Source of the DNA: Bacteroidales bacterium
Lineage (GTDB): Bacteria > Bacteroidota > Bacteroidia > Bacteroidales > G3-4614
DNA length: 64,000 bases
Direction of reading: 5' to 3'
Assembly (NCBI GenBank): GCA_017521245.1
Contig: JAFXDI010000051.1
Span: 24,162 to 88,161, forward strand
This document shows positions 4,231 through 29,717 of the stretch, piece after piece. How positions within the stretch are numbered: position 1 is the first letter of the stretch; every line of letters starts with the position of its first letter. The position numbers and the translations under genes are program-made. The notes under the pieces are model-generated. The model was not told the DNA's origin, did no database searches, and saw only the letters and a program-made list of their open reading frames with translations.

Positions 4231-4499
4231 CAGACCGCTAAAGGTTTGTAAGAATTGATAAAATACAAGGCGATTAAATTTAGGGAGAAAGAAGTGTAAA
4301 AAAGATACATAACTGAGCCCTAACAGTGGAAACAACACAGTAGTTTGTTGATTATAGCAAACCGCTAAAGGTTTGCAAGAATTGATAAAATACAAGGCGT
4401 TGAAGTTTAGGGCGAAAGGAGTGTACAAGAGGTACATGACTGAGCCCTAATACTGAAAACAACACAGTAGTTTGTTGATTATGGCAAACCGCTAAAGGT
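4231..4499. repeat. Family B repeat: 127-bp unit in tandem, 2.1 copies (4231-4357, 4358-4484, partial 4485-4499), abutting and overlapping the lrgB stop
   Basis: The units align directly. Each contains the hairpin ttagggc..tgtac..gtaca..gccctaa. The unit boundary caaaccgctaaaggt includes the last lrgB codons and the stop. A solo copy lies at 33846-33962. Confidence 0.85.
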
Positions 4500-5178
4500 A
4501 ATTCATAATACGTAATATAATTGGTGCAAACAACGAAGTCAACACTCCGTTGATTATAAGTCCTAAGGTTGCATATACCCCATGAATGGGGCTAACCTCC
4601 ATTGAGGCGGCTGTTCCTACGGCATGAGAGGCGGTTCCCATTGCCAACCCTTTTGATATATCATCGTTGAGTTTTATTATAGACATTGTTCTGTAACCTA
4701 TTACTGCTCCTAAAATACCTACGCACACAACAACTGCAGCTGTTAGTGACTCTATACCACCAAGAGCCGATGATATTTCAATCGCTATTGGTGTTGTCAC
4801 CGACTTTGGAGCAAGCGATATAATAACCTCGTTGGTTGCTCCCATAAGGTCGGCTATCGCTACAACCGATACTATTCCAACCACACATCCTGCCAATTGA
4901 GAGAGAAAGATGGGGATGAAGTGCTGTTTTATGGAGTCGAGGTGTTTATATAGAGGAACTCCCAATGCCACAATGGCGGGTTTTAACCAGAACTCAATAT
5001 ATTTTCCACCTTCGTTATAGGAGGTGTAACTAATATCGGCAAACTTCAAATAGCATATCATTACCGCAATGGTTATAAGTATTGGGTTTAGCAGTATTAT
5101 ACCTGTCTTTTTACGGATAATGGTTGCCACGTAATATACGGCAAAGGTCAGAGCGAGAAGTACAAACGTGTTATCCAT
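4492..5178 (-). CDS. lrgB: LrgB/CidB-family membrane protein
   Basis: This is a 228-aa polytopic membrane protein with the ..LAMGTASHAVGTA.. region typical of LrgB. Its start overlaps the lrgA stop by 8 nt. Confidence 0.85.
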   Translation of the reverse strand: MDNTFVLLALTFAVYYVATIIRKKTGIILLNPILITIAVMICYLKFADISYTSYNEGGKYIEFWLKPAIVALGVPLYKHLDSIKQHFIPIFLSQLAGCVVGIVSVVAIADLMGATNEVIISLAPKSVTTPIAIEISSALGGIESLTAAVVVCVGILGAVIGYRTMSIIKLNDDISKGLAMGTASHAVGTAASMEVSPIHGVYATLGLIINGVLTSLFAPIILRIMNYL

Positions 5179-5676: not shown

Positions 5677-5678
5677 TC

Positions 5679-8021
5679 TTAGATAAACATTAGTGCAATA
5701 CGATATGTTATGAAAGCAAACACCCATGCTACGCCTGTATTGTAGAGTACCGAGATGGTTGCCCACTTCCAGTTACTCTCGTTCTTAATTGCTATAACAG
5801 TTGCTATACAGGGGAAATATAGGAGTATAAACACCAGAAAAGAGAGAGCAGATGCAGTGTTAAATGCTCCGCCCGAAGCAAGTTTTTTTGACAATGCTCC
5901 TTCGCTTAACTCCTCTCCATCCTCCTCGGCATACAACACACCTAACGTACTGACAACAATCTCTTTTGCAGGTAGTCCAGAGAGTACCGCCACTGATGCT
6001 TTCCAATCCATACCGAGAGGCTCCATCACTGGCTCACAAACTTTACCTAACTGCTCCATATATGAGGTTTGAGGCTCGCCGTTACTCTTCTCGCCATGTG
6101 GGAAATAACTTAAAAACCATATCACTATTGAAGCAATAAGAATGAGACCTCCCATCTTTTTGAGATACTGTTTACACTTATCCCACATATGGCTAACGGT
6201 TGTTGCCAACGATGGCACTCTATATGGAGGCAACTCCATTACAAACGGGGTATCATCTTTCTTAAACATAAATCGGCGAAGAAGTTTTGATGTTACAACA
6301 GCCATCAATATTCCGCCTATGTAAAACAGAAATAGCACCAGTCCTGCATTGTTGGGGAAGAATGTTCCTATAAAGAGTATAAATATTGGAAGTCTTGCAC
6401 TGCACGAAATGAAAGGCGAAATCATCATTGTAATAAGGCGTGATGAGTGGCTCTCAATTGTGCGTGTTGCCATAATGGCTGGAACGTTACAACCAAATCC
6501 CATAACAAGAGGGATAAACGATTTACCGTGCAAACCTATCTTGTGCATTATCTTATCCATAATAAAGGCCGCACGTGCCAAATATCCCGAGTCCTCCATA
6601 AACGAGATAAAGAGATATAGAATCATAATGTTAGGCAAGAAGACTATCACACTTCCCACGCCACCTATTATTCCATCGGTAATAAGAGCCTTTAATATAC
6701 CTTCGGGCATAAAGTTACCAACAAAACCACTCAACCACTCAACACCTGCCTCAATCCACTCTTGCGGATATGCTCCAAGACTAAATGTGCAGTAGAACAT
6801 TAAAAACATTAGCAGGAAGAAGATAGGAAATCCCCATAGTTTATGAGTTACAAGAGTATCTATTATTCGGGTAACTAAAACTCCATCGTTTTTACCTGGT
6901 GTAAAACACTCCTTTAAAGCACCCGAAATAAATCCATATTTCTGGTTTGTTAATGCACCCTCAATATCCTCTTTCAAATCTCGCTCAATATGCTTAACCT
7001 CGTGGTCACGAATCTCAATCCACTCTTTATAATTGGGGCAACCACTTAGTTGAGCCTCAACACTTGCATCACGCTCCAATAACTTTAAGGCGTAGTAACG
7101 CGGCGGAAAGTATTTGGGCAATTGCTCACTATTGCGTTTCAACGCCTCTTTAACCTTTGACAGTCCCTCCTCAATAATACTTCCGTTATTAATGTGAATA
7201 TGACGCATTTGAGAGTTGGTATTCTCATACACCTCTATAACGGTATCTAAAAGCCACTCCACTCCTTTCCCGCTTTTTGTAGAGACAGGCACCATTGGCA
7301 CTCCTAACAAATCACCCAGTTGATTATAGTCAAGAACTGCTCCGCTACGTTCAAGTTCATCAAACATATTTAGCGAGACAACTATCTTCTCATCCATATC
7401 AATCAACTCGGTTGTGAGGTAGAGGTTACGTTCAAGATTTGATGCAACAACAGTATTTATTACAACATCGGGCGACTCGTTTTGAAGATGCTCTCTTACA
7501 TACCTCTCTTCGGGCGTATAAGCCGATAGGGCGTATGTACCGGGCAGGTCAGTTATGATGAAGTTGTAACCACGATAACGGCACTCCCCTTTCTTTGCAT
7601 CAACGGTAACACCGCTATAATTACCCACGTGTTCGTGACTGCCCGAGATTGCATTAAAGAGAGATGTTTTACCACTATTGGGATTACCTACAAGAGCAAC
7701 ATTTATCTCTCTGTTTCGTTGAGTAATAACCTCCTCTATACTCTCTTTTGAGTAGGTAGCAGTTGCTTTATCGGCAGGGATAAGGCTCTTTGCCTCCTCT
7801 TCGGTTATAACCTCAATCATAGAGGCTTCGCTACGGCGTAACGAAACCTCGTATCCCATAATCTCATACTTGATAGGATCTTGTAAAGGAGCATTAAGCA
7901 ACACCTTTACTCGCTTGTTGCGAACAAAACCCATCTCCATAATACGGCGGCGGAAACCTCCATGTCCCTTAACCTTCAATATTACGGCAGACTCTCCTGT
8001 ATTTAATTCCGATAAAAACAT
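5679..8021 (-). CDS. feoB: Ferrous iron transporter, FeoA-FeoB fusion
   Basis: The 780-aa protein has an N-terminal FeoA-like domain (~75 aa), a G-domain with GNPNSGKTSLFN and DLPGTY, and a C-terminal polytopic gate region. Confidence 0.95.
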   Translation of the reverse strand: MFLSELNTGESAVILKVKGHGGFRRRIMEMGFVRNKRVKVLLNAPLQDPIKYEIMGYEVSLRRSEASMIEVITEEEAKSLIPADKATATYSKESIEEVITQRNREINVALVGNPNSGKTSLFNAISGSHEHVGNYSGVTVDAKKGECRYRGYNFIITDLPGTYALSAYTPEERYVREHLQNESPDVVINTVVASNLERNLYLTTELIDMDEKIVVSLNMFDELERSGAVLDYNQLGDLLGVPMVPVSTKSGKGVEWLLDTVIEVYENTNSQMRHIHINNGSIIEEGLSKVKEALKRNSEQLPKYFPPRYYALKLLERDASVEAQLSGCPNYKEWIEIRDHEVKHIERDLKEDIEGALTNQKYGFISGALKECFTPGKNDGVLVTRIIDTLVTHKLWGFPIFFLLMFLMFYCTFSLGAYPQEWIEAGVEWLSGFVGNFMPEGILKALITDGIIGGVGSVIVFLPNIMILYLFISFMEDSGYLARAAFIMDKIMHKIGLHGKSFIPLVMGFGCNVPAIMATRTIESHSSRLITMMISPFISCSARLPIFILFIGTFFPNNAGLVLFLFYIGGILMAVVTSKLLRRFMFKKDDTPFVMELPPYRVPSLATTVSHMWDKCKQYLKKMGGLILIASIVIWFLSYFPHGEKSNGEPQTSYMEQLGKVCEPVMEPLGMDWKASVAVLSGLPAKEIVVSTLGVLYAEEDGEELSEGALSKKLASGGAFNTASALSFLVFILLYFPCIATVIAIKNESNWKWATISVLYNTGVAWVFAFITYRIALMFI

Positions 8022-9043: not shown

Positions 9044-12000
9044 ATGAATATCTTCAAGACTTTTATCGCTTCGTCTCTCAAAGGAGAATTTTTAAATATA
9101 AGAGAGAAATTTGCTAATGCACTTTGTTCTCTCAATAAAGATACGGAACTTGCCCCCCTGAATTTCAGTACATATAGGTTTGAAGAAGATGGCTCCAATG
9201 TTATCAATTGTGAGGGGTCGCAGAACAAAATCAATATGAAGATTGAGGAGTGTCAAGCTTTTGTAGTTATATGTAACTCAAATATTGGGAAAAAGACGGT
9301 GGAGGAGTTCCGGAGAGCACAAGAAAGGTGCAAAAGATTCCTTAATCCAACATTTATCATGGTATTGAAGCAGAGAGAGAATGTTCCTTGTGGTGAAAAT
9401 CAGATTACTTATGATAAGTTCAAGGAAGAATACCTAAAAATCTCCAGTTACAATAATGATGGTAGCATAAACAATGATTATACTATATACGAGTATGAGT
9501 TTGATGAAATAAAAGATGCTACAGATAAACTCAAGAAAGACCTTAAAGAGTGGATTACCCAAAATGACCATCGTCCACTATTTAAGGCTGAACTTGGAGT
9601 AGACGTCACTCCCTCTTTTCTTTATAAGGATGAGAGTAGGAAGGAAAAGTGTGATGAGAAAATGTATTTTAAGAGGGACTTTGATGATAAGCTCGATCAG
9701 GCGTTGATGTCAGATGAACCAGTGATTCAGATTAAAGGTGCATCGTTGTCTGGTAAGACTCGCGCGTTGTATCAGGCCATCAAGAATATTCCCGATGCTT
9801 GGTTTTACAAATTCAAGGAGCGTCATGTTGAGACAAAGCTTATTGCCGAAATAAATGAGATTGTCAACTATATTAGACCATCAAAGTGTGCTTCTCCTTT
9901 GTATCTTATATTTGATGATATTCATCAAATGCCTTCGACAGAAAATGTAAAATATGCATTGGAAGAACTGCTTGATGCTATCAAGAACAAGAATATACAT
10001 ATCATAACAACATCTACTTCTTCTGACAATATATTGTTAAGGGCTGAGAAGATCATAACAATAAAGTCATTGACAAGAAAGGAGCATAATGAGGCGGAGT
10101 TGTTCTTCAAACGTCATGGATTGACGGTAGAAAAAGGGTATCAGGAAGTAGGTGCTATGATAATTGACCTAAAAGAGATAAAAAATAATTACGAAATTTT
10201 TAGGTCAAATTCCAGGACAAATGAGAAACCTGTAAGAGAATGTCTGCTTTATGCAATAAAGGCAATGTCAATATGGCACAGTCTCAATATTGGAAATGTT
10301 GAAGAATTGTTCGAACTATCGAAATACATGCTTAAGAAAGAGGGCTATACTCAGGAGAATGAGACAAAGACAATGCTGTATGAAAGTATTAATTCTTTGC
10401 TAACACTGCCAGGAATAAGTCAAGATGGAAATGATGAGTTTAATGTATCCACATTCCATAAACTTCCCAAGTATATCAATATAGAGGAATATATATACCG
10501 TTATGTACTTGATAAGCTTACACTTAAAAAAGAACAGGAGATGATAAACTCTATTCTTGGTTATGTATCAAAGAAAAAAGATGAATCTATAATAGTTACT
10601 TTGTCCAAATTATCCCGACGTACCGAAAATAGGAAGGAGATAGCACAAAGTATTTATGACATGGTTATGGGTATATACCATAAAGAGGAAAGTCCCATTC
10701 CCGATACCTGTACAAAAGAATGGAGAGAAAAACTCAATAAGGAAATAATACAAAAACTCAATGAGGAAATAAGACAAATAGAGGAAGAGGTTACTAATAA
10801 TGATAAGAAAAGCAATGAGGAGTGTTCTGAATTGTGTATATATATGGCCAAGATTATATGGTCAAGAATGCTCTATATTGAATCTTATGATGAGGCTAAA
10901 GCTTTTTTTTATGCTGTACCGTATCCACTCCAGAGTTTACCTATGCTGGGGGTTTTAATAGTGAAGTCTTCGGGCAATCTGGAAGAACTTCAGAGGATAA
11001 TGGATAGAGATAATGTTAAAAACTCATTCTATATTATCAATAAACTGATTCCTTTTGCAACTGATTTTGATGAGGCCAATGAGTTATTAGAAAAAGGCAA
11101 ATTGCTATATACGAGTGATGACGATTATTTGGAATCATCAGATAGCCTCAGAACTCTTGTGAAAGATAAGAAGAACAATGCTGATGAGTGGAAAAGATTG
11201 AAGATAAAGGATATTGATAGATATAATTTTATCTGTGCTTTGAATAGTCTTGCCGAGAAAGTAGGGAGTTTTGATGATTTGGAGAAATTGGCTGAAGTAA
11301 TAAGAAAAAATTATGTGTTGCTTCTTGATGATCTAGATCTCGCTGAACGCTTCAAATCTGAAACAGATAACTACTCCAGAGATAAACTGACAATAATAGA
11401 CCTCATATCACGTCTGAACTTTTACGCTATCCGAGCGGCTTTCATAAATATCTTCTCATGGGGCAATTATGTTCCGTTTGAGTTATATAATCTCACCAAT
11501 AGAATAATAGAGGAGTTTATAAAGACATCAAACCTTTATACTCCTAGATATAAGTCTAAACATACAGTCTGTACAATATTTAATACGTTTATTGAGAAAT
11601 GTCATAATTGTTCATACAAGGAGGTATTTAAGGAGATTTTTCTCAAAATGAATGTACAGATGGGCAAGAAAATAATAAATCTTAGCGACTCTTTCACATA
11701 TAGCGTAATGATGAGGATGAAAGATTGCAAGTACATGGACGCTTTGGATCTATACTATAATTTCATAAAACCGCATAGCAAAGAACCAGATAGTCGTTTG
11801 AGGATTACACATTTCATGCTTAACGAGATTCTTAATAAGGTTAACACTCCCTCTGAGTTTAACAAGATAAGCAGACTCTTTGATGAGAATGATGTCTCTA
11901 AAGACGTGATTACATATAATCTGGCTATGCGTAACCTTAGTTATAAGGTATGTGTAAAGAAGATACTTCCACAGATGTGTAAGGATAATATTGAGATTGA

Positions 12001-15000
12001 TATATATACACTAGGAACACTTATATCAAAAGCTCCTAATGTGAAAGTTGCAGCAGGTTACTTCTATCCGTTGTTGGAAATTGGCATTAGAGCTGAAAGC
12101 AATATGATCGATAATACAGATGTTAAGAATAAACTAAAAGAAAAAATTGAAGACTATACAAAAAATCTACCTCTTGAAGAGCAGCATTATCTTTGGTCTG
12201 CTTTGGTGGGAACGCCCTGTAGGAATGATGAGGATAGAGAAGTACTTTTCCGTATTCTTGAATACATGGAAGATCCTAATAACAAAACACACATATTAGG
12301 TGAACATGATAACGGTATAATATATAATAACTGTATTAAGAATAGAAGCTTTATTCGCAATTTTGAGGAGGCTAAAAATTTTATGTCTTCAAAAAGAATA
12401 AAATCTGATAAATATACTCTAACGCATCTGATAAAGATTATAGAAGACGATTATAATAATTCAGGTGATTACGTACAGAAGATAACCTGTATAAATGATT
12501 TGTATCGTAAAAATAAAGAAATGATTCAATCTGAAATAGAGAAAAACAATACATATATATACAATAATCGTCTAAGGTTTTATAGATCACATGCGGATAA
12601 ATTGCAATTTGTTTTCATATTAGGTAACGGCACAACGAAAACAAAAAAACTTACACCAATGGAGTATCTAGAGTATCTGCATAATAACAATTTACCCATA
12701 GATCAATACACTTTCAGCCTTTTTGCTGGTATTAAGGATGGACAGTCTGTTGAATTGCTTGAAAACCTTATTAAATTCATAAATGAAAAAAATGAAAATG
12801 ACCTCTTTGTAAACCATTCTGCTATCGATTCTATTGTAGAAAGATTCAAGAATGTTATTCCAGAGGATAAACGTATAGATTTGCTAGAGAAAATATATGA
12901 TCTGCCAGTAAAGGATAATATCATCTCAGATGGGAAAGCAATCGTTAAGAAGTATTCTCTCGGCTTGTATACCCTAGAAAATGCATTTGATAAGATACCT
13001 GGGAATAATACTGAAAAGTTATATCTTTACACACAAATCCTCACGCAGTACAGGAAGTTTGCACTTGACTCAGATAAAAATGTTATATCGCCTAACGATA
13101 ACGAATATTCTTCATCTTTTTTTCGCTGTAAACAATTATATGATACATATGTGGTTGTTCAAAAAATTGTTCCCAATGTAGATATTCTTTCTGTTCTGTC
13201 TAACTTTGCGACTAATAAAAAAGAGCTTCAATCTGTATTTAATGAATTGGAAGAATACAGTCTTGCCCCGTCATCATATTTTATAACTTCAATATTACAT
13301 GTATCAAAGAACCTACAAGATGTAAAGGATTTACTTGGAACATATATAGAATATGGGGGTGCTAAACCAGGAAGACCTGGTTCAGAAAATGAGGTGGATA
13401 TAATATTGAGAGGTATCAATATTATATGGATGTCTACTAGAGACAACGAAATACATGAGAAGATCAGCGGATTAACGGACTATATTCTTTCTGATGCTGA
13501 TCATTGTGACGTCTTGAACGATTTCCCATGTTTCAAAATATACAAAGATAATGGAGGTTGTTTGACGCAAAAAGGATTGTGTGAATTGTTGAAATGTTGG
13601 CCTTATGGCTGTGACGACAAACAAACAACCAAAGATAAGTATATCGAAAGGCTTCAGTTGTTGTTAAGCCGATATTATAATCCCGATAATGATGAGATAA
13701 GACCAGCACTTGTAGAGTCCTTGTCTTTTGTATACAATAAACTTAGACTAGACCATGGTAGCCTCTTCTGTGCTCTTAAACCATATCCTAAGTTAGCCTT
13801 TGAGCTTGCTAAAGAAATCAATATTGATTATAATACATATAGTTTATTGGTTGAGAGTTGGAACAACGGATTTGACGAGATTTCTCAGAAAGATGCCATA
13901 GAGGTGCTCCTTGCAAAATTACAGTGTCTCCCAGAGGAAGTCCATAATGAGATATTTGATAGAATATTTGAAAAATGGGATGCCGGCATATCTGTAGCCG
14001 ATTTCCTTATGAGTAAGGATACAAATACTTTGCAGAACGCCATAAGGAATGTAGCCGAATACAAGGAAAATGATAAACTAAGGCAAAAATACTTGTCTGA
14101 CAAGTTTCAAAGACTTCGCTCATCAAATCAATATGACCCAGAACAGACAATTGCTCTGTTTGTGGATACTTTTGGGGAGGATCTATCCTATGCAGAATTT
14201 CTCGAGTCTGAATTGAAAAAACTGGATAAAAGCATTAGGATTTTTGATAACTTCAAACCTCTTCTTTATTCTGTTTCTGGCGAGAAAGAAAGCGTTATAA
14301 TCATATTATGCTATATGGCGGATAGGATTACTTCGTATAGTGATCTCTATTACATTATAGAGAATATATGTTCTGAAGAGGTGGATATCACAAAGGAGCT
14401 GGCTCAGAAAATAGTATCCAATTTGATGCAAAAAAAATATGATGATTACAAAATAAAATTTGTGGCCAATCAGATACTTACTGCAATTCATAATGACAGA
14501 ATTGTTTTAAATGATCTGCTGTATGTTCCGATATCTTTCCCTTATGAACAACTTCAGAGGCCTTTGAACTTGGATGAAAAAGAGAAATCTTTATACAGAC
14601 TGATATATAATCTCTCATCAGAAATGAATGGCTTATCATCAGATCAGATGATAATGCGAGCAGAGGAGCTTATATGTACCTATTATAAAGACAAAAGATC
14701 AAGTTATAAAGACAAAAGATCAAGAATAAATTCATTGGTGGTTCAAGAACTTGTTGGACTATATATACTCGCATACAATAAACAGAATGATAAGGAATCA
14801 AAGAATACCTTGTGTGAAAAGATAAGTAAAGTATTGTCTGTACCTTACTATTCCCACAAAAAAGATATTGAGAATTCTTGGTATAGCATGATAGATACAT
14901 CTGTACTTTTCTCTGACAAATGTAAAGCCAGACTTAACAATAGTGATAATTGGTATAAGGTGCCTTCAATTAACATATCCAGAATGCTTATGTCTTTCTG

Positions 15001-16759
15001 GGAGTGTGAGGATAAGGCAAAATTGGATATTGTATATTCCTCAGGTATACAGCATATTTGGTGGAATAATGCATATAAGGGTAATTTTGCGAAACTGTTT
15101 GATTGTTTCGAGTATGTTAAGTCAAAGCCAGAATCGCACTATGCGTTCATGAATAGTCTTTTTAATGAAGCTACTAACGGTAAAGATTTCATACAGGCTC
15201 TAAATATTCTTATATCTGAAGAAAAAACAAACTGTAATATTAATGTTGTTATAAAGACATTAATCAGTATAATATGTAAAGATACTAATTTGATAACGAG
15301 ACTATTGGAATACAATGAAAAACAGAGATCTAATAAGAACTATAAGTGGTATACTGATGCTAGTTTCTTTAATTTTGTATTTGAACAAAAATGTTTTGAT
15401 GAAAGTACAAACGTTAAATTACAAAAGATATTCGAGAAGAAATACATGAAAGCATTGTCAATATTCGTCTCGGAAATACATCTTAGGAAGTCTTTGTCTT
15501 CTTGTAAAATTCAACATTATCGACAACATGACCGAAAAGCTGTTGTAAATGAGGTTGACAAACTTATAGGCAATTATGTTTCTAATCATTCACGATATTT
15601 TGAAAAAGGTGGTAGAATTAATAATGGCTTGCTAATAGCCACATATATCAATACTAAAAGAAGTGCAACTTCAATAATTCAGAAGATTATGACACAGTCA
15701 TCATATAACTCTTCAATGCTACCTTCATGTGCTGGCTGTAATAATATCTTTACCGATAAGATGGATTATTATATTTTCAAGGAGTTAAGTTCAGAGATAG
15801 AAAAGAGGCGTTATCAATGGATTACGACACAGAAACTGTTGCATAAACTATTGTTGGCATGTGGTAATGATTTCGTATTGGAAGCTCCTCAATTGCTAGT
15901 ATTAGTTGCAAAGACTCTTAAAAATGCTGATGAATACCGCTGGTTCACAGAAGATTTGATGAAATTTTATTTACCTGTTACTCCAGAATTGACTATAGCA
16001 CTTATGGATGCCGTTATGATAATCCAAGAGAAAGAGAAGAAGAATTGGATATTGAAAAAGGTAGTTAGCAGATTAAGAGCATTGGCTGAGTATGAGCTTT
16101 GTTTTGCTGGAGATGTTTGTAAAGATTTCAAGGCTGGTTATTTCCTTTTAAGGCAAGAGCAGAATATTGATTTTGATAATTATTGGGCTAGACAACCCCT
16201 TCACATTAAAAGTAAAGTCTTCGATAATATGGTTAAAAAGATTAAGAATGCCAAATTCGATGAACGTATAAATGTAATCATGGATATAGATTCAATTATG
16301 CTTAGGTGTATGCTCTTGCTCAGATTTTATGTTGAGAACAAAGATCAATCAAAGAAAAATTTATCTGTTTTAAATAAAAAGATAAGTGATTGTTTTAAAG
16401 AATTGACTAACTTCCTTAATTCACCGGATACAGACGGTATGCAGATATCTTCACTCATCAGATTATTTAGACTTATGACGAAACATTCTATAAAAGTACC
16501 TAAAAATATGAGTGAATCAATGTTTCTAGGAGTGGTAAAATTCTATCGTAGGCAGACAGAGAATAAATTACTTGGAAACATTTATAAAATTCACGTTGAA
16601 TATGTACTGAATATAATCAAGTATATTTGTGATAGTAATCGTAGAAATGAGAAACCGAACTCAATAATATATTATAGGCTTTTTACAAACAACAAGGAGA
16701 AAAAAGAATTCCCTTACTTTGAATGTGATACAGAAACGCTTTATAATGCATTGAAATGA
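9044..16759 (+). CDS. Giant 2,571-aa cytoplasmic P-loop NTPase with STAND-like motif order, a TIR/DUF4062-like N-terminus and a very long helical-repeat C-terminus; family unknown
   Basis: The ORF is an uninterrupted 7,716 nt in AT-rich DNA, while every overlapping alternative-frame ORF in the track is under 80 codons. Motifs are Walker A GASLSGKT (nt 9737-9760), Walker B LYLIFDD (nt 9899-9919), then IHIITTSTS and ITIKSLTRKEHNEAELFFKRHG. No signal peptide or TM helix is apparent. Confidence 0.9.
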   Translation: MNIFKTFIASSLKGEFLNIREKFANALCSLNKDTELAPLNFSTYRFEEDGSNVINCEGSQNKINMKIEECQAFVVICNSNIGKKTVEEFRRAQERCKRFLNPTFIMVLKQRENVPCGENQITYDKFKEEYLKISSYNNDGSINNDYTIYEYEFDEIKDATDKLKKDLKEWITQNDHRPLFKAELGVDVTPSFLYKDESRKEKCDEKMYFKRDFDDKLDQALMSDEPVIQIKGASLSGKTRALYQAIKNIPDAWFYKFKERHVETKLIAEINEIVNYIRPSKCASPLYLIFDDIHQMPSTENVKYALEELLDAIKNKNIHIITTSTSSDNILLRAEKIITIKSLTRKEHNEAELFFKRHGLTVEKGYQEVGAMIIDLKEIKNNYEIFRSNSRTNEKPVRECLLYAIKAMSIWHSLNIGNVEELFELSKYMLKKEGYTQENETKTMLYESINSLLTLPGISQDGNDEFNVSTFHKLPKYINIEEYIYRYVLDKLTLKKEQEMINSILGYVSKKKDESIIVTLSKLSRRTENRKEIAQSIYDMVMGIYHKEESPIPDTCTKEWREKLNKEIIQKLNEEIRQIEEEVTNNDKKSNEECSELCIYMAKIIWSRMLYIESYDEAKAFFYAVPYPLQSLPMLGVLIVKSSGNLEELQRIMDRDNVKNSFYIINKLIPFATDFDEANELLEKGKLLYTSDDDYLESSDSLRTLVKDKKNNADEWKRLKIKDIDRYNFICALNSLAEKVGSFDDLEKLAEVIRKNYVLLLDDLDLAERFKSETDNYSRDKLTIIDLISRLNFYAIRAAFINIFSWGNYVPFELYNLTNRIIEEFIKTSNLYTPRYKSKHTVCTIFNTFIEKCHNCSYKEVFKEIFLKMNVQMGKKIINLSDSFTYSVMMRMKDCKYMDALDLYYNFIKPHSKEPDSRLRITHFMLNEILNKVNTPSEFNKISRLFDENDVSKDVITYNLAMRNLSYKVCVKKILPQMCKDNIEIDIYTLGTLISKAPNVKVAAGYFYPLLEIGIRAESNMIDNTDVKNKLKEKIEDYTKNLPLEEQHYLWSALVGTPCRNDEDREVLFRILEYMEDPNNKTHILGEHDNGIIYNNCIKNRSFIRNFEEAKNFMSSKRIKSDKYTLTHLIKIIEDDYNNSGDYVQKITCINDLYRKNKEMIQSEIEKNNTYIYNNRLRFYRSHADKLQFVFILGNGTTKTKKLTPMEYLEYLHNNNLPIDQYTFSLFAGIKDGQSVELLENLIKFINEKNENDLFVNHSAIDSIVERFKNVIPEDKRIDLLEKIYDLPVKDNIISDGKAIVKKYSLGLYTLENAFDKIPGNNTEKLYLYTQILTQYRKFALDSDKNVISPNDNEYSSSFFRCKQLYDTYVVVQKIVPNVDILSVLSNFATNKKELQSVFNELEEYSLAPSSYFITSILHVSKNLQDVKDLLGTYIEYGGAKPGRPGSENEVDIILRGINIIWMSTRDNEIHEKISGLTDYILSDADHCDVLNDFPCFKIYKDNGGCLTQKGLCELLKCWPYGCDDKQTTKDKYIERLQLLLSRYYNPDNDEIRPALVESLSFVYNKLRLDHGSLFCALKPYPKLAFELAKEINIDYNTYSLLVESWNNGFDEISQKDAIEVLLAKLQCLPEEVHNEIFDRIFEKWDAGISVADFLMSKDTNTLQNAIRNVAEYKENDKLRQKYLSDKFQRLRSSNQYDPEQTIALFVDTFGEDLSYAEFLESELKKLDKSIRIFDNFKPLLYSVSGEKESVIIILCYMADRITSYSDLYYIIENICSEEVDITKELAQKIVSNLMQKKYDDYKIKFVANQILTAIHNDRIVLNDLLYVPISFPYEQLQRPLNLDEKEKSLYRLIYNLSSEMNGLSSDQMIMRAEELICTYYKDKRSSYKDKRSRINSLVVQELVGLYILAYNKQNDKESKNTLCEKISKVLSVPYYSHKKDIENSWYSMIDTSVLFSDKCKARLNNSDNWYKVPSINISRMLMSFWECEDKAKLDIVYSSGIQHIWWNNAYKGNFAKLFDCFEYVKSKPESHYAFMNSLFNEATNGKDFIQALNILISEEKTNCNINVVIKTLISIICKDTNLITRLLEYNEKQRSNKNYKWYTDASFFNFVFEQKCFDESTNVKLQKIFEKKYMKALSIFVSEIHLRKSLSSCKIQHYRQHDRKAVVNEVDKLIGNYVSNHSRYFEKGGRINNGLLIATYINTKRSATSIIQKIMTQSSYNSSMLPSCAGCNNIFTDKMDYYIFKELSSEIEKRRYQWITTQKLLHKLLLACGNDFVLEAPQLLVLVAKTLKNADEYRWFTEDLMKFYLPVTPELTIALMDAVMIIQEKEKKNWILKKVVSRLRALAEYELCFAGDVCKDFKAGYFLLRQEQNIDFDNYWARQPLHIKSKVFDNMVKKIKNAKFDERINVIMDIDSIMLRCMLLLRFYVENKDQSKKNLSVLNKKISDCFKELTNFLNSPDTDGMQISSLIRLFRLMTKHSIKVPKNMSESMFLGVVKFYRRQTENKLLGNIYKIHVEYVLNIIKYICDSNRRNEKPNSIIYYRLFTNNKEKKEFPYFECDTETLYNALK

Positions 16760-16860: not shown

Positions 16861-17167
16861 CTCTCTTATCCAAAGAAAATGTATGCCATAAATATGGCTG
16901 CAACTATACCAATAAAGTCGGCAATAAGACCAACTCCTGCGGCATAACGGCTGTTTTTAATACCAACCGAACCAAAATAGACGGCAAGTATATATAGTGT
17001 GGTATCGGTTGAACCCTGAATGGTAGAGGCAACACGAGCAACAAATGAATCGGCTCCGTATGTAGCCATAGCATCAACCATCATACCTCTTGCTCCACTT
17101 CCGCTAAGGGGCTTCATGAGTGCGGTGGGAATAGTTCCAACAAAGTCGGTATCAATACCACAAGCGA
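16861..17167 (-). pseudogene. 3' fragment (last ~100 codons plus stop) of a spmAB-like nucleoside-recognition membrane protein gene; duplicate of 22653-22959
   Basis: Manual alignment to 22653-22959 (offset 5,792) gives 9 mismatches in 307 bp. The last 83 codons are identical at protein level. No 5' part of the gene is present. Confidence 0.85.
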
Positions 17168-17457
17168 TTGAAATATCATCGGCTCTTGGCGGTATAGAGT
17201 CACTAACCGCAGCAGTTGTTGTGTGCGTAGGTATTTTAGGAGCAGTAATAGGTTACAGAACAATGTCTATAATAAAACTCAACAATGATATATCAAAAGG
17301 GTTGGCAATGGGAACAGCCTCTCATGCAGTAGGTACAGCAGCCTCAATGGAGGTTAGCCCTATTCATGGAGTATATGCAACCTTAGGTCTTATAATCAAT
17401 GGAGTGTTAACTTCGTTTTTTGCACCAATTATACTACGTATTATGGGCTACCTATAA
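17165..17457 (+). pseudogene. 3' fragment (last ~97 codons plus stop) of an lrgB gene, inverted relative to the full lrgB at 4492-5178
   Basis: Manual alignment to the reverse complement of 4492-4784 gives about 20 mismatches in 293 nt and only 3 aa changes (D>N, L>F, N>G). Similarity continues about 25 nt past the stop, to about 17482. Confidence 0.85.
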
Positions 17458-17500
17458 CGGTTTGCCATAATTAACAAACCTATTTGGGTAACTAAAATAA

Positions 17501-17535
17501 ACAGATAAGGGATGCTAATAGCACCCCTTGTCTGT
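17501..17535 (-). terminator. Hairpin terminator downstream of the efflux operon
   Basis: acagataagggatgc pairs with gcaccccttgtctgt (imperfectly). On the minus strand it is followed by ttattttag, 16 nt after the MFS stop. Confidence 0.55.
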
Positions 17536-17550
17536 TGTAAAATATTAAAA

Positions 17551-19143
17551 CTAAAATTGCTTATCTGCTTTATCCATACGTAGTTGATGTTTAATGTATC
17601 GGCGAATAGTTCTATATTTAGGGTGTATTGCAAAGGTGGGGCGTAGCGAACTCTCTCGCAACAAGTATATCATCAATGTTCCCAATCCAACAAGAATAAG
17701 CCATCCAAATATCTCTTTCATACTAACGGCAATAGCCTGAATTTGTACAATGCCGTAGAGTTCTCCAAGCGAGAAGTTCTTTGCTAAAACATTTACATTA
17801 TCAATCTCGCTACCGAGTAACATACTATTCTTGCATACCAATACTTTAAACAGACGTCCAACAATTGCCTCACCAAAAGCACTCGCTATGGCAGCACTAA
17901 AGAAACCTTGAATTGATACTGCCTGAAAAAAGTTGGTAAATGGTATTAACGAGAGGGCTGTAAGCAGAGTGATTGAGAGTATCACAAACCCAATGCTTCG
18001 TGCCAATATTGGCAATATAAGAGCCTCTTTAGGGAGATTAAAATCAACTACAAAGTAGAATAAAATCAAATACAAAACCAAGAATGAGAAACCAATAGTT
18101 GTCATAGTTTTGTATCTCCATTTGCGGATAGCAAATGTTCTCCAAGAGAAGAATGCTCCTATTGCAATACCCGCCAATGCCCATAGTTTCATTGATGCAA
18201 TGTTAAGTGTATCGTAGTGTAGTATCACTCCCATATACATCTCCTCTAACACGCGTGATGGAGCGTTAAGAGTTGATATTACAAGATATATAATTAGTGA
18301 ATAGTAGAGAGGTTTAAACCTCCACGTTTTAAGTTCGTAGAAGGGGTGGCGAATAAATGATGAACGCCAAAGATTAAGCCCCAATGTAACAATAGCGGTG
18401 ATAAGAGCCGTCCATATTACAGGAGAGTTAAACCAGTCGTAGAAGTCGCCATATACCATTATAAACACTAACGATAATGCAACTGTACACCACAACAATA
18501 TACCCACCCAATCAATACCAAAAAGTGGAAGTTTTGGAAGTGTTCTAATTGTACGGAATATAATTATAGTGGTAATTATAACTATCAAAAAGAGTCCTAT
18601 AACCAAAAGATACATATACTCCCATTTGGCAAAGAAAGCGGTGTATATGGTGGTAATTCCTCCAATCTCAATCATGCCCTGCACAAGTAACTCAATGTAG
18701 CAGAAGAATACCGACAAATCGCGTTTTGGAGTGAGCCATAACTGAATAGCAGAGTTGCACCCAAACGTTCCCCACATTCTAAATATACCTGTAATAAAGC
18801 ATACCCCAAACATAAGAGGAACACTTGAAGTGTTTACTACAATAATGTTACCAATGATTATTGCAGAGGAGCAGATAATAAAGGTCTGTTTCAGTGGAAA
18901 TCTGAACTTCAGCCTAAACATTATGGCAAAGGTTAGAGCAAGTCCTGCCAATGAGGCGTAACCTGCCATAAGAATATCCTCTCGCATAAGAGCGAGCGAA
19001 CCGCTCATTTCGCCTAACGCTGCAAGATATACACCTCCTGAAAGTTGAAAAACAATAACAAAGGCAATTATTATCCAAGGACGTATCTTCTCTGGAATAA
19101 AATTGCGAAATTCAGGAAGTGAAAAGGGTGGAATCTCGTGCAT
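17551..19143 (-). CDS. MFS efflux permease, DHA2/EmrB-like (about 14 TM helices)
   Basis: This 530-aa, highly hydrophobic polytopic protein is the last gene of a TolC-HlyD-MFS operon. Confidence 0.8.
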   Translation of the reverse strand: MHEIPPFSLPEFRNFIPEKIRPWIIIAFVIVFQLSGGVYLAALGEMSGSLALMREDILMAGYASLAGLALTFAIMFRLKFRFPLKQTFIICSSAIIIGNIIVVNTSSVPLMFGVCFITGIFRMWGTFGCNSAIQLWLTPKRDLSVFFCYIELLVQGMIEIGGITTIYTAFFAKWEYMYLLVIGLFLIVIITTIIIFRTIRTLPKLPLFGIDWVGILLWCTVALSLVFIMVYGDFYDWFNSPVIWTALITAIVTLGLNLWRSSFIRHPFYELKTWRFKPLYYSLIIYLVISTLNAPSRVLEEMYMGVILHYDTLNIASMKLWALAGIAIGAFFSWRTFAIRKWRYKTMTTIGFSFLVLYLILFYFVVDFNLPKEALILPILARSIGFVILSITLLTALSLIPFTNFFQAVSIQGFFSAAIASAFGEAIVGRLFKVLVCKNSMLLGSEIDNVNVLAKNFSLGELYGIVQIQAIAVSMKEIFGWLILVGLGTLMIYLLRESSLRPTFAIHPKYRTIRRYIKHQLRMDKADKQF

Positions 19144-19149
19144 AATTTA

Positions 19150-20184
19150 TTAGTAATTAACTATACATTCGGCATTCATTCCTGCTCTTAAACGAGCCAT
19201 ATCATCTGCTTTGTTATCATCGGTAAAGATGATTTTCACTGGGATACGTTGTTCAATCTTTACAAAGTTTCCTGCAGAGTTATCTTGTGGAAGAAGTGAG
19301 AAACTTGCTCCAGTTGCCTGAGATACTGACTCTACAACTCCCTTAAACACTACATCGGGAACAGCATCGACCTCAATCTCCACTTCGTTGCCAACTGATA
19401 TGTTTGCAGTTTGAGTCTCTTTGTAGTTTGCAATTACCCACTTTGAACCACTATCAACAAAGTCGGTAATAGTTTGTCCTGGTTGTATAAGTTGTCCAAC
19501 TTGAATCTTCTTGCGGCCTGTAACACCATCGCAGGGAGCAATAATAACAGTGTATGAGAGGTTTAGTTTTGCCAAATCCAAAGCAGCCTCTGCTAAACGG
19601 ATGGCAGCCTCAGTTTGGTTAAGTCTATCTCCTTGCTCGGCCTTAACAAGGACGGTTGATTGACGCTGACTCTTTAATGCCTCGTAGCGTTGTTTAAGAG
19701 CAACATAATTTGTCTCCATTGCATCAAATTGTTGTTTTGTTACAGCATCATTCTCAAACAAATTCTTATAACGGATATAATCTCTTTCGGCATTCTCCAT
19801 ACGCACCTTTGCCTCTGCAACAGCAGCATCACCCGCCTCAATATTGCTTGAAGTGGTATTTATTGCAGTAGCCATTGCCGATTTCCCCGAAACTGCATTA
19901 TAGTAGTCTGCTTCGGCTTGTGCTAAACGGAAACGAAATTCCGAATCTTCAATAATGGCAAGAGTGTCGCCCTTCTTAAACTCTTGATACTCCTCAAAAC
20001 GAATATCTTTAATAAAACCCTGAACTCGCGAGTTTACAGGAATAATATGTTGTTTTACCTGAGCATTGTCGGTAAACTCAACACTACCCAAATGAATAAA
20101 TCTACTTGCAACCCATGTCAATCCTAAAATTAAACACGCAAGAACAACAATATTAAAAATCAGTTTTTTACTTTTCTTATTCAT
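19150..20184 (-). CDS. HlyD/EmrA-family membrane fusion (periplasmic adaptor) protein
   Basis: The 344-aa protein has an N-terminal TM anchor, a central coiled-coil-like region and a C-terminal beta-rich region. It sits between the TolC-like and MFS genes. Confidence 0.85.
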   Translation of the reverse strand: MNKKSKKLIFNIVVLACLILGLTWVASRFIHLGSVEFTDNAQVKQHIIPVNSRVQGFIKDIRFEEYQEFKKGDTLAIIEDSEFRFRLAQAEADYYNAVSGKSAMATAINTTSSNIEAGDAAVAEAKVRMENAERDYIRYKNLFENDAVTKQQFDAMETNYVALKQRYEALKSQRQSTVLVKAEQGDRLNQTEAAIRLAEAALDLAKLNLSYTVIIAPCDGVTGRKKIQVGQLIQPGQTITDFVDSGSKWVIANYKETQTANISVGNEVEIEVDAVPDVVFKGVVESVSQATGASFSLLPQDNSAGNFVKIEQRIPVKIIFTDDNKADDMARLRAGMNAECIVNY

Positions 20185-20216
20185 AATTTTTATCTATTTC
20201 TCTGTAAAACAATCTA

Positions 20217-21530
20217 CTATAAACTACCTGCTATTTTGCCTAACTTATAATACTTAAACAAGATATTTATTTTTGCATTTGCAACCTCTAATTCAGCATC
20301 CAATTTCTGATTACTTGCATCTAACATCTCAGTGATAAGCACCAATCCATTTGAGTAACGCTCGTTAATTACTGAGTAATTCTCAGTTGCAAGTTGCAAT
20401 GATTTTACCTGAGTGGCATATATTGTAAATGCCTCTTCAAACTCAATGTATGCCTCTTTAATGGCACTCTCTAAATTGTCTTTTGCAATCTCCTCTTCCC
20501 AACGGGCCTTAGTGGTTGCAAGAGAGGCTATGCTACGTTTTTTGTTTGTCTTATATGTCGAAGAGAGGTTGTACTTAATACCTATACCCACATACCAATA
20601 GTTTAGGTTTTTATCAATGGGTGGTACCTCAATGGTTATTGGCCCATCTAACTTGTCGGCAGCAAAAAGAGCAATAGAGGGAATCATCTCGCTACGAACA
20701 ACCTTCTCGTTTTTCTCCGATAGTTTAACTCCAGTCTCTGCCATTTTCAAAATAGGAGAAGAGATGTTTGCACTCTCTTGCCAATACTCCTCTCCTGCAA
20801 CTTGTGGCATAACCTCCAATATACGGGCATCGGGAATAATTACTGTTGTGCAGGGTAAATCAACTAAGGTAGTAAGTTTGTTATTTACCACTGCGGAGCG
20901 GTTTTGTGTTTGAGTGAGTGCAAGTTGAAGAGATTGTAACATCAATTCATAACGAGTAATATCGTTTTTAAGAGCCAACCCCTCATTTTTACGTGCGGTA
21001 ATCTCTTTTACAACCTTTTCGGTCTGCTCAATATTTTTTTTATAGACCTCTGCTTCGTTTGCCAAACGTGCCAACTCAAGGTAGTATCCTGCTGCCAAGA
21101 AACGAACATCAATTCTATTCCTTTCAGCATCCTGTAACGATAGTTGGTGTTTAAGTTTTGAAGCATCTATTGAGTTTTGAATTGCTCCACCAGCGTATAT
21201 AACTTGCGATGCCTCAATCGCAAAGTTGTTGCCAAGATGAGGCATATCCTCATTTCTCCCGTTCTTGAAATTACGATCAGCAAGCCAAATGTTTCCTAAA
21301 TAACTTGCCGAGAGTGAGAGGTCAATCTCAGGCAATCTCATATTCTTTGCAACACGTATCTCCTCTTCTGCCTGTGCAGCAGCTATCTCGTAAGCCTTTA
21401 CGCTTTTGCTTCGTGAGTCGGCAAGAGAAAAGAGTTCATCAATAGAGATGGTAATTGAATCTTGTACTGCCTTTACCTCTGGTGTGAAAACAAACGTAAA
21501 GAGCAATAGCCATAACAATAGTTTCTTCAT
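20217..21530 (-). CDS. TolC-family outer membrane efflux protein
   Basis: The 437-aa protein has a signal peptide (MKKLLLWLLLFTFVFTPEVKA) and a two-repeat helical, TolC-like sequence. It is the first gene of the efflux operon. Confidence 0.85.
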   Translation of the reverse strand: MKKLLLWLLLFTFVFTPEVKAVQDSITISIDELFSLADSRSKSVKAYEIAAAQAEEEIRVAKNMRLPEIDLSLSASYLGNIWLADRNFKNGRNEDMPHLGNNFAIEASQVIYAGGAIQNSIDASKLKHQLSLQDAERNRIDVRFLAAGYYLELARLANEAEVYKKNIEQTEKVVKEITARKNEGLALKNDITRYELMLQSLQLALTQTQNRSAVVNNKLTTLVDLPCTTVIIPDARILEVMPQVAGEEYWQESANISSPILKMAETGVKLSEKNEKVVRSEMIPSIALFAADKLDGPITIEVPPIDKNLNYWYVGIGIKYNLSSTYKTNKKRSIASLATTKARWEEEIAKDNLESAIKEAYIEFEEAFTIYATQVKSLQLATENYSVINERYSNGLVLITEMLDASNQKLDAELEVANAKINILFKYYKLGKIAGSL

Positions 21531-21697
21531 ATTAAGAGTTTAAAATTTATATATCTAAATGGGCGATGAAATGTGAGTAAAAAAAAGAAAAATATCCCCT
21601 TTCAAAAATTGTTGCAAAGGTCGCAAAAAAGCCTCAAAAACTACATTGCTCAAAATATACAAAATTGGTTTAATTTGAACATTTAAATAAATAATAT

Positions 21698-21705
21698 TAC
21701 CTTTG
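21698..21705 (+). promoter_or_regulatory. Candidate -7 box (TAnnTTTG) for the AraC-family regulator
   Basis: tacctttg matches TAnnTTTG, 42 nt upstream of ATG 21747. Confidence 0.45.
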
Positions 21706-21746
21706 TATAGAAGTTGCGTGAGTAAATAAATAGGTTAGAAAAGAAT

Positions 21747-22649
21747 ATGAAACAGCATCTATATATTAAGAATATCTCAGACGTAAGTAGGAGTGGAGAG
21801 GTAAAAGAGTATATGAGCGGAATGTTAGGGAGTTCCTTTATAACTCATAGTAATAATCCTCTTGAGCAGACTCCTGCGGTATATATAAATGCAAATATCA
21901 CACTCTTTGTACTAAGTGGCAAAGCAGACTTTTCAATAAACTACACCACTCATAAAGTGAGTGAGAGAGATATAGTAATGCTCTCTCCTGCACATCTTGT
22001 AACATTAACAAACCTAACGGACAATTTTCGGGCGGAGGCTCTATTTGTGAGTAGAGAGTTTATGGAGAGTATGGATCCAGTTGATATAATCTCAGTTCGC
22101 ACCCGATATGGGGTAAAACTATACTCTCAACCAGTAATAAACTTCACGCCCCAAGAGGTAGAGTTTATGATGCAACGCCTCTCGTTATTTAAGCAAGTAT
22201 TGAATAACTTACAACACCACTATTATAACGAAACGGTATTGAGTACACTCATTCTCTTTTTCCTTGATTTAAGTAACATAATAGAGCAAAAGCATCTGCA
22301 AGTAGGTGAGGCTCTGCCACGTAGGGAGTATATAACAAATATGTTTATGGAACTCCTCTCGGTCAACTATCGCACCCAACACTCTGTTGCTTTTTACGCC
22401 TCAAAACTCAATATTACATCGCACTATCTGACACTTGTGGTAAAGCAGGTAACAGGGCAAACCATTTGCGATTTTATATACGAAATGCTATACAGTAGGG
22501 CAAGAGCATTATTGCAAGAGAACAAAATGAGTATTCAGGAGATAGCCTCATATCTTCACTTTTCTGACCAATCCTCATTCGGAAAATTCTTTCATCGCCA
22601 TTCGGGACTATCTCCAAAGGAGTATCGTCAAAAACAGTTAGAGAAATAG
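21747..22649 (+). CDS. AraC-family transcriptional regulator
   Basis: The 300-aa protein has a C-terminal double HTH region (..SIQEIASYLHFSDQSSFGKFFHRHSGLSPKEYR..). It is divergent from the efflux operon. Confidence 0.9.
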   Translation: MKQHLYIKNISDVSRSGEVKEYMSGMLGSSFITHSNNPLEQTPAVYINANITLFVLSGKADFSINYTTHKVSERDIVMLSPAHLVTLTNLTDNFRAEALFVSREFMESMDPVDIISVRTRYGVKLYSQPVINFTPQEVEFMMQRLSLFKQVLNNLQHHYYNETVLSTLILFFLDLSNIIEQKHLQVGEALPRREYITNMFMELLSVNYRTQHSVAFYASKLNITSHYLTLVVKQVTGQTICDFIYEMLYSRARALLQENKMSIQEIASYLHFSDQSSFGKFFHRHSGLSPKEYRQKQLEK

Positions 22650-22657
22650 AGGCTCTC

Positions 22658-23890
22658 TTATCCAAAGAAAATGTATGCCATAAATATGGCTGCAACTATA
22701 CCAATAAAGTCAGCAATAAGACCAACTCCTGCGGCATAACGGCTGTTTTTAATACCAACCGAACCAAAATAGACGGCAAGTATATAAAGTGTGGTATCGG
22801 TTGAACCCTGAATGGTAGAGGCTACACGAGCAACAAATGAATCGGCTCCGTATGTAGCCATTGCATCAACCATCATTCCTCTTGCTCCACTACCGCTAAG
22901 GGGCTTCATGAGTGCGGTGGGGATAGCACCAACAAAGTCGGTATCAATACCACAAGCGGCAACTACGTAGGTTATCCCCTCAGTCAAAAAATCCATTGCT
23001 CCAGATGCCCTGAACATTGCAATGGCAACTAACATTGCAATAAGGTAGGGGATAATAGTAACAGCGGTCGTAAATCCCTCTTTTGCTCCGTCAATAAATG
23101 CTTCATAAACATTTATCTTTTTTCTGACACCTGCCACCAAAAAGAGTATTATAATTGTAAAGAGCAACATATTTGCTCCAACGGTAGAGTAGAGCGAAAC
23201 CTTTTCTGCTGGTAAATTCATAAAGAAGGCTAACAACCCTCCCATAATGGCAGTGGCAATAGTTACGGTAGATATTATAACTCTGTCAAAAATGTTTATT
23301 CGTTGCTTTATGCAGGTTATTAACAATCCTGCAAGAGTTGTAATGTATGTAGCAAGCAGAATAGGTAAAAACACGTCCGAAGGGTTTCCTGCTCCCATCT
23401 GCGCTCTATATACCATTACGCTTATCGGTATAAGAGTTAGTCCTGTGGTGTTAAGCACCAAGAACATTATCATTGCATCGGTTGCTCTCTCCTTTTGAGT
23501 GTTCAACTCCTGCATCTCCTTCATTGCTTTAAGACCAAGAGGAGTTGCGGCGTTATCAAGTCCCAGCATATTTGCCGAGAAGTTCATAAATATTGAGCCG
23601 AATATCGGACTATCTTTTGGTATTGAGGGAAATAGTCTTGAGAAAAACGGTGATACCCAACGGGCAAATATTGAGATAATGCCTCCGCGTTCTCCGATCT
23701 TCATCAAACCAAGCCATAGCGACAACACTCCAGTTAACCCAAGAGATATTTCAAATGCGGTTTTTGCCGATGAGAAAGAGGAGTTCATAATCTCTGACCA
23801 CACATTCACGTCCCCCATAAAGATACTCTTTATGAGTGCTACTGCAAAAGCAATAAAGAAGAACGATATCCAGATATAATTAAGTACCAT
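22658..23890 (-). CDS. Nucleoside-recognition (Gate) domain membrane protein, SpmA/SpmB-like fusion
   Basis: The 410-aa polytopic protein has an N-terminal half that is SpmA-like and a C-terminal half that is SpmB-like. The assignment is from recollection. Confidence 0.7.
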   Translation of the reverse strand: MVLNYIWISFFFIAFAVALIKSIFMGDVNVWSEIMNSSFSSAKTAFEISLGLTGVLSLWLGLMKIGERGGIISIFARWVSPFFSRLFPSIPKDSPIFGSIFMNFSANMLGLDNAATPLGLKAMKEMQELNTQKERATDAMIMFLVLNTTGLTLIPISVMVYRAQMGAGNPSDVFLPILLATYITTLAGLLITCIKQRINIFDRVIISTVTIATAIMGGLLAFFMNLPAEKVSLYSTVGANMLLFTIIILFLVAGVRKKINVYEAFIDGAKEGFTTAVTIIPYLIAMLVAIAMFRASGAMDFLTEGITYVVAACGIDTDFVGAIPTALMKPLSGSGARGMMVDAMATYGADSFVARVASTIQGSTDTTLYILAVYFGSVGIKNSRYAAGVGLIADFIGIVAAIFMAYIFFG

Positions 23891-29592: not shown

Positions 29593-29717
29593 AGCAAGTT
29601 CAACAAACGAATCTATGTTAACTAACAAAGTTGCGAGTAAGCGAACACAATACAAAATTTATTTGTGTATTGTTGAGCGAGAGCAAGTTCAACAAACGAA
29701 TGTTTGTTAACTGATAA
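29593..29717 (-). repeat. Structured intergenic repeat, family A, copy 2 (minus orientation, about 1.3 units)
   Basis: The reverse complement aligns with copies 1 and 3 and begins at the purB stop codon. The first hairpin module recurs at the distal end (29593-29630). Confidence 0.7.

Follow-up and report, generated by a model that had tools for sequence, protein, structure and literature searches.

Two fused foreign gene tails beside an efflux operon in an uncultured Bacteroidales genome: a probable closure point of a transferred 5,792-bp unit

In Campbell-type integration, and with the translocatable units of IS26, a circle that carries cargo together with one stretch of homology integrates and becomes flanked by direct repeats. 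The locus described here is similar in that its cargo is flanked by direct repeats of its homology, and departs from these units in that it lacks IS, transposase and integrase genes, its homology comes from the tail of an ordinary housekeeping gene, and the circular vehicle is one that we infer. A second group of related structures is the join points of duplications and amplifications (PMC3161906), which, like our locus, have one novel joint connecting the far end of a segment to its start through a few bases of homology, in segments of 5–40 kb; in E. coli lac amplification there is microhomology at all 40 of the sequenced junctions. As in the lac-type join (PMC3161906), the segment here carries a selectable function, an efflux operon. 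The joint is head to tail on one strand (with the spm side at the left and the lrgB side at the right) and has short homology, but the window (the whole 64,000-nucleotide stretch of DNA that was analysed) has a single copy of the operon rather than two or more in tandem, and the repeated part is a 306-nt tail only. Unlike a lac-type join, it could not have been produced by the gene order of the window, and it is thus inherited from another lineage. The repeat-flanked amplifiable units and heteroresistance amplicons (PMC12892994) are comparable in having direct repeats that allow RecA-dependent unequal crossing-over with loss or amplification, and there is a unit-length circular or tandem contig in our set as well; the departures are that the flanks are 306-nt gene tails of 97% identity, not IS elements or rRNA operons, and that amplification is here a possibility. 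Lastly, homology-facilitated illegitimate recombination and the 3′-end displacement arrays of Rhs and T6SS loci (PMC3240628, PMC5361080) share with this locus the placing of foreign modules beside a conserved gene and the orphaned 3′ remnants, although in those systems the illegitimate joint is between donor and recipient, whereas here the sequence is of donor type on both sides. The case combines established processes, and what is distinctive is a join point made in one gene order and now found in another lineage, with an empty site and a possible circular form from one sample. The scar itself is of an ordinary kind for a rearrangement, and is unusually legible.

The window is from an uncultured Bacteroidales in which the resident LrgB is NCBI MBR4120009.1, and its relatives bear the label Candidatus Caccoplasma. 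The gene order (with arrowheads for orientation) is S1 protein >, two tandem copies of a 127-nt repeat, lrgB<, lrgA<, feoAB<, rnhB<, followed by a giant ORF>, the scar, a gene for a 530-aa membrane protein<, HlyD<, OEP<, AraC>, spm< and GH77<. The features are listed in Table 1.

Table 1. Features of the scar, the efflux unit and the parent genes in the window
Feature	Coordinates	Strand	Remarks
Resident lrgB 3′ end + 22 nt	4470..4787	-	inverted-repeat partner of lrgB', 12.3 kb away
Resident lrgB	4492-5178	-	intact gene
Giant ORF	9044-16759	+	2,571 aa; GC 0.31-0.36 compared with ~0.40
5,792-bp unit	16861..22652	.	present in window; absent from empty site (L148); circular contig (L003)
spm'	16861..17166	-	last 100 codons, stop and 5 nt; left direct repeat of unit; foreign 'd' allele
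Join patch	17141..17166	.	closed by AGCG; strongest short similarity of sense lrgB to antisense spm
lrgB'	17163..17457	+	last 97 codons and stop of an LrgB gene; foreign allele
lrgB-530 native intergenic region	17458..17550	.	bidirectional terminator hairpin at 17507-17529 (terminator scan)
Tripartite efflux operon (predicted)	17551..21530	-	530-aa membrane protein, HlyD and OEP (Pfam, NCBIfam matches)
HlyD-type membrane-fusion protein	19150-20184	-	operon gene
OEP/TolC-type outer-membrane factor	20217-21530	-	operon gene
AraC-family regulator	21747..22649	+	Pfam HTH_18; right-hand end of unit
Resident spm 3′ end	22653..22958	-	right direct repeat of 5,792-bp unit
Resident spm (Gate-domain, SpmA/B-like)	22658-23890	-	intact gene

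The two fused gene tails are where the sequence-only reading had placed them. One (spm', 16861-17166) is a direct copy of 22653-22958 with nine mismatches in 306 nt, and the other (lrgB', 17163-17479) is a reverse complement copy of 4470-4787 that is mismatched at 20 of 291 coding nucleotides and at one of 22 in the 3′ flank; lrgB and lrgB' constitute inverted repeats of 318 nt and ~93% identity. Their truncated 5′ ends abut at AGCG (17163-17166) in a joint reading ...CCACA-AGCG-ATTGAA..., and the 31-mer spanning it is ATACCACAAGCGATTGAAATATCATCGGCTC. The four bases are common to both parent genes, as had been proposed from the sequence, and an illegitimate join of the microhomology type is supported. 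The fragments themselves are non-functional remnants. An earlier claim that about 25 nt downstream of lrgB had been copied holds for the flank (22 nt with the one mismatch), and the end of this match is not a breakpoint, since the sequence runs on collinearly as in sister species. The match to the resident copy stops early because the resident flank holds two copies of the 127-nt repeat. The intergenic region to the right of lrgB' is the repeat-free form of the spacer in the sister species: it aligns collinearly with that of L007 and L131 if their 127-nt repeat is left out, and it has the terminator in common with them.

The sequence-only reading had also described the divergence of both fragments as almost wholly synonymous. 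This is the case, with eight synonymous and one replacement change between spm' and the resident gene, and with 15 synonymous codons (the earlier count was about 14) and three replacement codons in lrgB', where third positions make up 16 of the 20 differences. The dN/dS values that it called for are 0.038 for spm' and 0.080 for lrgB' (NG86), similar to intact orthologs between species (0.02-0.09), and the substitutions are not random with respect to codon position, the synonymous excess under random placement having P ~1e-4 for spm and 6e-7 for lrgB. Five of the six changes that are unique to the lrgB' branch, as polarized against the sister species, are synonymous. Ortholog-like dN/dS thus lends support to the earlier proposal of divergence as functional genes in a related genome, and the codon pattern supports the view that both fragments probably diverged under purifying selection in working genes of another, related lineage. 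A decaying local pseudogene duplicate is rejected by the dN/dS of 0.04-0.08 and by the same branch-specific changes in lrgB'.

The segment between the two spm tails contains lrgB', the 530-aa protein gene, HlyD, OEP, AraC and the spm 3′ end, and is collinear with the lrgB-to-spm interval of the sister species. The 530-aa protein has a weak EmrB/MFS likeness, and the block is therefore read as a predicted AraC-regulated, EmrAB/TolC-like tripartite efflux operon. The AraC stop is 8 nt from the spm stop, as it is in sister species, and the alignment with L006 is contiguous over the AraC/spm boundary. Relative to the sister species the operon has a dS of 0.10-0.20 compared with 0.28-0.44 for the backbone (lrgB/lrgA-rnhB), and this lower value, about one-third of that of the backbone, is consistent with a separate and more recent origin. 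There is no transposase or integrase in or beside the unit, and an IS-, transposon- or integrase-borne island is rejected, as the ORFs (LrgB', MFS-like, HlyD, OEP, AraC) include no mobile-element genes and the unit is bounded by gene tails. No match to the unit was found by megablast in a plasmid collection, and an exact search with the joint gave none in JGI metagenome contigs and none in viral contigs. All relatives of the 530-aa protein in the JGI metagenomes are at most 55% identical, with no close contexts, and a protein search with the 96-aa LrgB' peptide had a single truncated resident-type sequence as its sole match.

Relatives were collected from a scan of species-representative genomes with LrgB and from exact-protein look-ups, and they have two gene orders. 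In the sister species (L006, SUXK01000005; L007; L131/L154; L153), which are ~91-96% identical at the nucleotide level and have neither the giant ORF nor the scar, the order is rnhB>, feoAB>, lrgA>, lrgB>, the 127-nt repeat, 530<, HlyD<, OEP<, AraC>, spm< and GH77<. The outgroup L008 (~79% identical) has GH77>, spm>, rnhB>, feoAB>, lrgA> and lrgB>, and the operon is absent. The scar keeps both adjacencies, with the lrgB tail beside 530 as in the sister species, and the spm tail facing rnhB as in the outgroup with the giant ORF between them. From AGCG rightwards past GH77 the window is collinear with sister genomes, and because this includes L007 and L131, AGCG is the single novel joint. Derivation of the sister order from that of the window by one inversion between the lrgB copies is rejected, since the sister species have another left neighbour of rnhB and no scar. 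We note that homology between the spm-rnhB spacer of L008 and the window flanks of the giant ORF is undetectable at such divergence.

The position of the joint is informative. The sense strand of lrgB and the antisense strand of spm share AAAGTCGGT..AC.A.ACCA..AGCG, with identity at 20 of 25 nt for the window alleles and at 19 of 25 for L006 and L131, and this pair of patches ranks first among all 25-nt pairs between lrgB and spm in the window, L006 and L131 alike (shuffle p ~0.015 with the window alleles and ~0.10 in L006 and L131). Where the genes have the sister order, the two patches form direct repeats whose spacing, 5,943 nt in L006 and 5,917 nt in L131, corresponds to 5,792 nt plus the 127-nt repeat. 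An exchange between them in that order would yield either a tandem duplication or an excised circle, and either would carry the observed joint. In the window's own order lrgB and spm are mutually inverted and 18 kb apart, so simple duplication or deletion there could not have made it.

The alleles on the two sides of the joint provide a second line of evidence (positions in the spm repeat are numbered from the spm stop). Resident spm is the same as the allele at an empty site in a conspecific genome (L148, described below), with no differences from position 130 to at least 700, and spm' differs from both at eight sites in 130-302, four of which match L006 or L131. lrgB' has 20 differences in 291 nt from the resident gene, 11 from that of L158 and 12 from those of L152, L155, L156, L157 and L161; all six of these have intact lrgB, and the contigs long enough to show the order are of the sister type. 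Both sides of the joint are thus non-resident (by eight sites in spm' and 20 in lrgB'), which argues that the joint predates its entry. The closer donor lineage that the sequence-only reading had suggested looking for was found in part: there is nearer intact lrgB (11-12 differences compared with 20), and no donor with the joint or with an identical allele was found, the best intact lrgB still being off at 11 of 291 positions and operon dS to the sampled sister species being 0.10-0.18.

Further support comes from L148 (ERZ27256848, 29 kb), which matches the window from 36584 to 22653 with 13 mismatches in 13,932 nt and then from 17166 to 12489 with 17 in 4,678 nt. Nearly all of the mismatches are within the repeat and the flanks are at least 99.9% identical. 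This contig is of the same species and represents an empty site, with intact spm joined to the flank of the giant ORF and with no operon, lrgB' or scar; insertion of the unit is therefore polymorphic within the window species, this evidence coming from one contig and the choice between insertion and loss being judged by allele parsimony. The empty site is robust, because a single k-mer length suffices to connect the private variants of L148 (repeat positions 19-100) both with the flank of the giant ORF and with resident-type bases, which begin at 130. At positions 19-100 both spm copies of the window share the d-type allele, with the exception of a private A55 in the resident copy, and this shared allele differs at eight sites from that of the empty site, which is the L006 sequence there. 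The presence of the d allele at 19-100 in both copies is not predicted by a single reciprocal crossover. The pattern may fit two crossovers (one before 19 and one between 100 and 130) from a duplicated or multimeric donor, a route in which one crossover lies within ~23 nt of the repeat edge; alternatively there may have been one crossover near 100-130 followed by a conversion tract, or the recipient may already have carried the d allele at 19-100.

We favour, as the probable explanation, that the scar is the closure point of the 5,792-bp efflux unit, made in a lineage with the sister order and then integrated here by homologous recombination. Judging from the geometry, the first step would have been an illegitimate exchange in a sister-order relative between the imperfect 25-nt direct repeats in lrgB and spm, ending at AGCG, with a product (a tandem duplication or an excised circle) that would in either form bear the joint of the spm 3′ end to the lrgB 3′ end. 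Formation of the joint is placed in the sister order because the patches are direct repeats at unit spacing there only. From the alleles, the second step would be that this DNA reached the window lineage, where spm adjoins the giant ORF and rnhB, and lrgB is elsewhere and inverted. Homologous recombination within the last ~130 nt of spm would then have placed the unit between 306-bp direct repeats, leaving a foreign spm tail fused to a foreign lrgB tail. We thus infer the sequence of joint formation as a duplication join or circle closure, transfer, and integration in the spm tail.

The same final architecture is predicted if the joint was made on entry, by homology-facilitated illegitimate recombination in which a linear donor was anchored in spm or GH77 and its far lrgB end was joined to recipient spm at AGCG, such that spm' is the recipient's old 3′ end. 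The process is recognized by microhomology joints that lie beside a homologous anchor (PMC3240628), and it would account for synonymous-only divergence too. We nonetheless consider it unlikely, as the conspecific L148 carries the resident-type allele and not that of spm' at 130-302, which argues that the left side is not recipient DNA, and as the location of the joint on direct repeats at unit-length spacing in the sister order would be a coincidence.

It is also improbable, and a little more so, that the scar arose in situ, through a complex rearrangement (e.g. template switching or MMBIR during an inversion) that copied the lrgB and spm tails and was followed by allele replacement of the parents. 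The window and the sister species do differ by inversions with breakpoints exactly at the lrgB and spm 3′ ends, and there is precedent for complex microhomology junctions into which nearby sequence was inserted (PMC3161906). However, the ancestral spm-rnhB adjacency shared with L008 would have to be re-created by chance, and both parents would need to be replaced by alleles differing by 3-7% while the flanking sequence kept an identity of at least 99.9% with the empty-site strain; the changes on the fragment branch are, moreover, still synonymous, in lrgB' as counted above.

The sequence-only reading had explained the two tails as flanks of donor DNA brought in together with the giant-ORF island or beside it, and we now regard this as very unlikely. 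The giant ORF does stand out by its low GC content and abuts spm', and it is missing at the corresponding position in L006, L007 and L008. However, in L148 it lies beside intact spm with neither scar nor operon, in L151 (a 97.6%-identical strain) it has the same flanks as in the window, and it is the efflux operon, rather than the giant ORF, that is contiguous with lrgB'. The island is thus a bystander, and the scar belongs to the 5,792-bp efflux unit. The ORF forms a single-gene low-GC island with a weak N-terminal AAA_14 match, and belongs to a rare and unnamed family of 31 clusters in which, after one copy at 95%, the next relative is 50% identical; PADLOC and NCBIfam gave nothing usable for it and an exact protein look-up was without a match. 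Within it, three contigs from two sample assemblies end or start at ~12448-12489 (L005 stops at 12448, and L148 stops where L002 begins, at 12489). There is no visible repeat or low-complexity tract at this position, and it may be a strain-variable spot.

A 145-aa chimeric ORF (17020-17457, + strand) crosses the joint as an in-frame fusion of 48 codons antisense to spm' with the LrgB tail, and public gene calls name it an LrgB-family protein. A functional role for the scar, either through expression of this ORF or through a 12.3 kb inversion by which the lrgB and lrgB' repeats would swap LrgB C-termini, would agree with the intact, gene-caller-predicted frame, with the lack of excess replacement changes on the lrgB' branch and with the length and identity of the inverted repeats. 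We find this scarcely plausible, as there is no recombinase gene between 4 and 24 kb of the window, a single orientation is found throughout all of the retrieved contigs, the alternative C-termini differ by three residues, and the empty-site strain manages without the fragment; an invertible, shufflon-like switch is rejected on the first two of these grounds. The ORF is most likely an annotation artefact of the scar, a remnant rather than a gene, and the lesson for annotation is that such a 145-aa 'LrgB' should be treated accordingly. Misassembly, a concern of the sequence-only reading, is the least credible explanation of all. Repeats of ~300 nt are a classic source of misjoined, chimeric contigs, but those of the window differ at nine and ~21 sites and are hence resolvable, and the joint with its ORF is recovered on five contigs from four sample assemblies (ERZ28653715, ERZ28654312, ERZ28653793 and ERZ27256848).

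The same sample as the empty site yielded a second contig of interest (L003), of 5,933 nt, which is 5,792 plus a 141-nt terminal overlap and describes a closed cycle of spm', the joint, lrgB', the operon and AraC. Outside the repeat it matches the window at 100% identity, and within the repeat it has the spm' (d) allele at nine of nine variable sites. For such a cycle to be assembled, the AraC end must have been connected to the spm' allele, either in actual molecules or in paths made by the assembler. We give about equal weight to two readings: the circle or tandem array is real, or it is an artefact that MEGAHIT made from a minor occupied strain mixed with a major empty one. The reciprocal product expected of a circle, a spm'/resident hybrid, was sought in L148 and was not found, there being eight extra L006-like sites at 19-100; we read L148 as a never-occupied or independently recombined site rather than as a fresh product of excision. 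A more ambitious and tentative suggestion, which we put forward as a possibility and no more strongly, is that the unit is a translocatable circle or an amplifiable array that lacks IS elements and integrase and originated at a duplication join point. It would shuttle an efflux operon among related gut Bacteroidales species of differing gene order using no more than a ~300-nt housekeeping-gene tail and host homologous recombination, and in one gut sample it would for the most part be amplified or remain outside the chromosome, where the site would be empty.

The locus documents, with rare completeness for a natural case, how an ordinary operon that lacks mobile-element genes can enter a genome where the usual two-flank homologous replacement is impossible: the join point, the gene order of the source and the empty site can all still be read, as can the foreign alleles to either side of the joint. 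The fragments have two structural consequences: the efflux operon lies between direct repeats through which it could be lost, excised or amplified, and the resident lrgB has a 318-bp inverted-repeat partner. An efflux operon between direct repeats is an arrangement known for unstable gain and loss of copy number, and this is relevant to how gut Bacteroidales tolerate drugs or bile.

The interval that separates the convergent lrgB and spm in sister-type genomes is a hotspot for cargo (e.g. L152 10726-18429; L153 4872-9072), and in these lineages the cargo begins right where lrgB ends, at its stop codon. Three variants are seen: the efflux operon; a 453-aa protein with a P-type ATPase and two GmrSD-type (DNA-modification-dependent nuclease) genes; and the 453-aa protein and P-type ATPase with the efflux operon. 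The short repeat next to lrgB is ~115-127 nt long, with copies in the window at 4242-4364, 4369-4491 and 33845-33967 and in L006 at 5677-5841 and 10687-10810. It is also 3′ of lrgB in L007 and L131, and in every close genome one copy or a tandem pair follows the lrgB stop directly. The repeat forms a long hairpin (z = -3.9) and has no match in Rfam. Around an acetyltransferase gene it occupies different places in the window and in L006; the repeat appears to be mobile and to sit at synteny breakpoints, and the flank of lrgB' looks like an empty site for it.

There are two further observations. The resident LrgB C-terminus (4492-4500) ends in ...MNYL, as do several other close LrgB variants, and lrgB', several sister variants and the outgroups end in ...MGYL. 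All three positions of this codon are changed (GGC to AAT), which suggests a clustered multi-nucleotide change. A second family of short intergenic repeats, ~60-100 nt long and 76-81% identical, is present in the window at 1966-2028, 29620-29720 and 49440-49545, in both direct and inverted copies that lie 3′ of genes.
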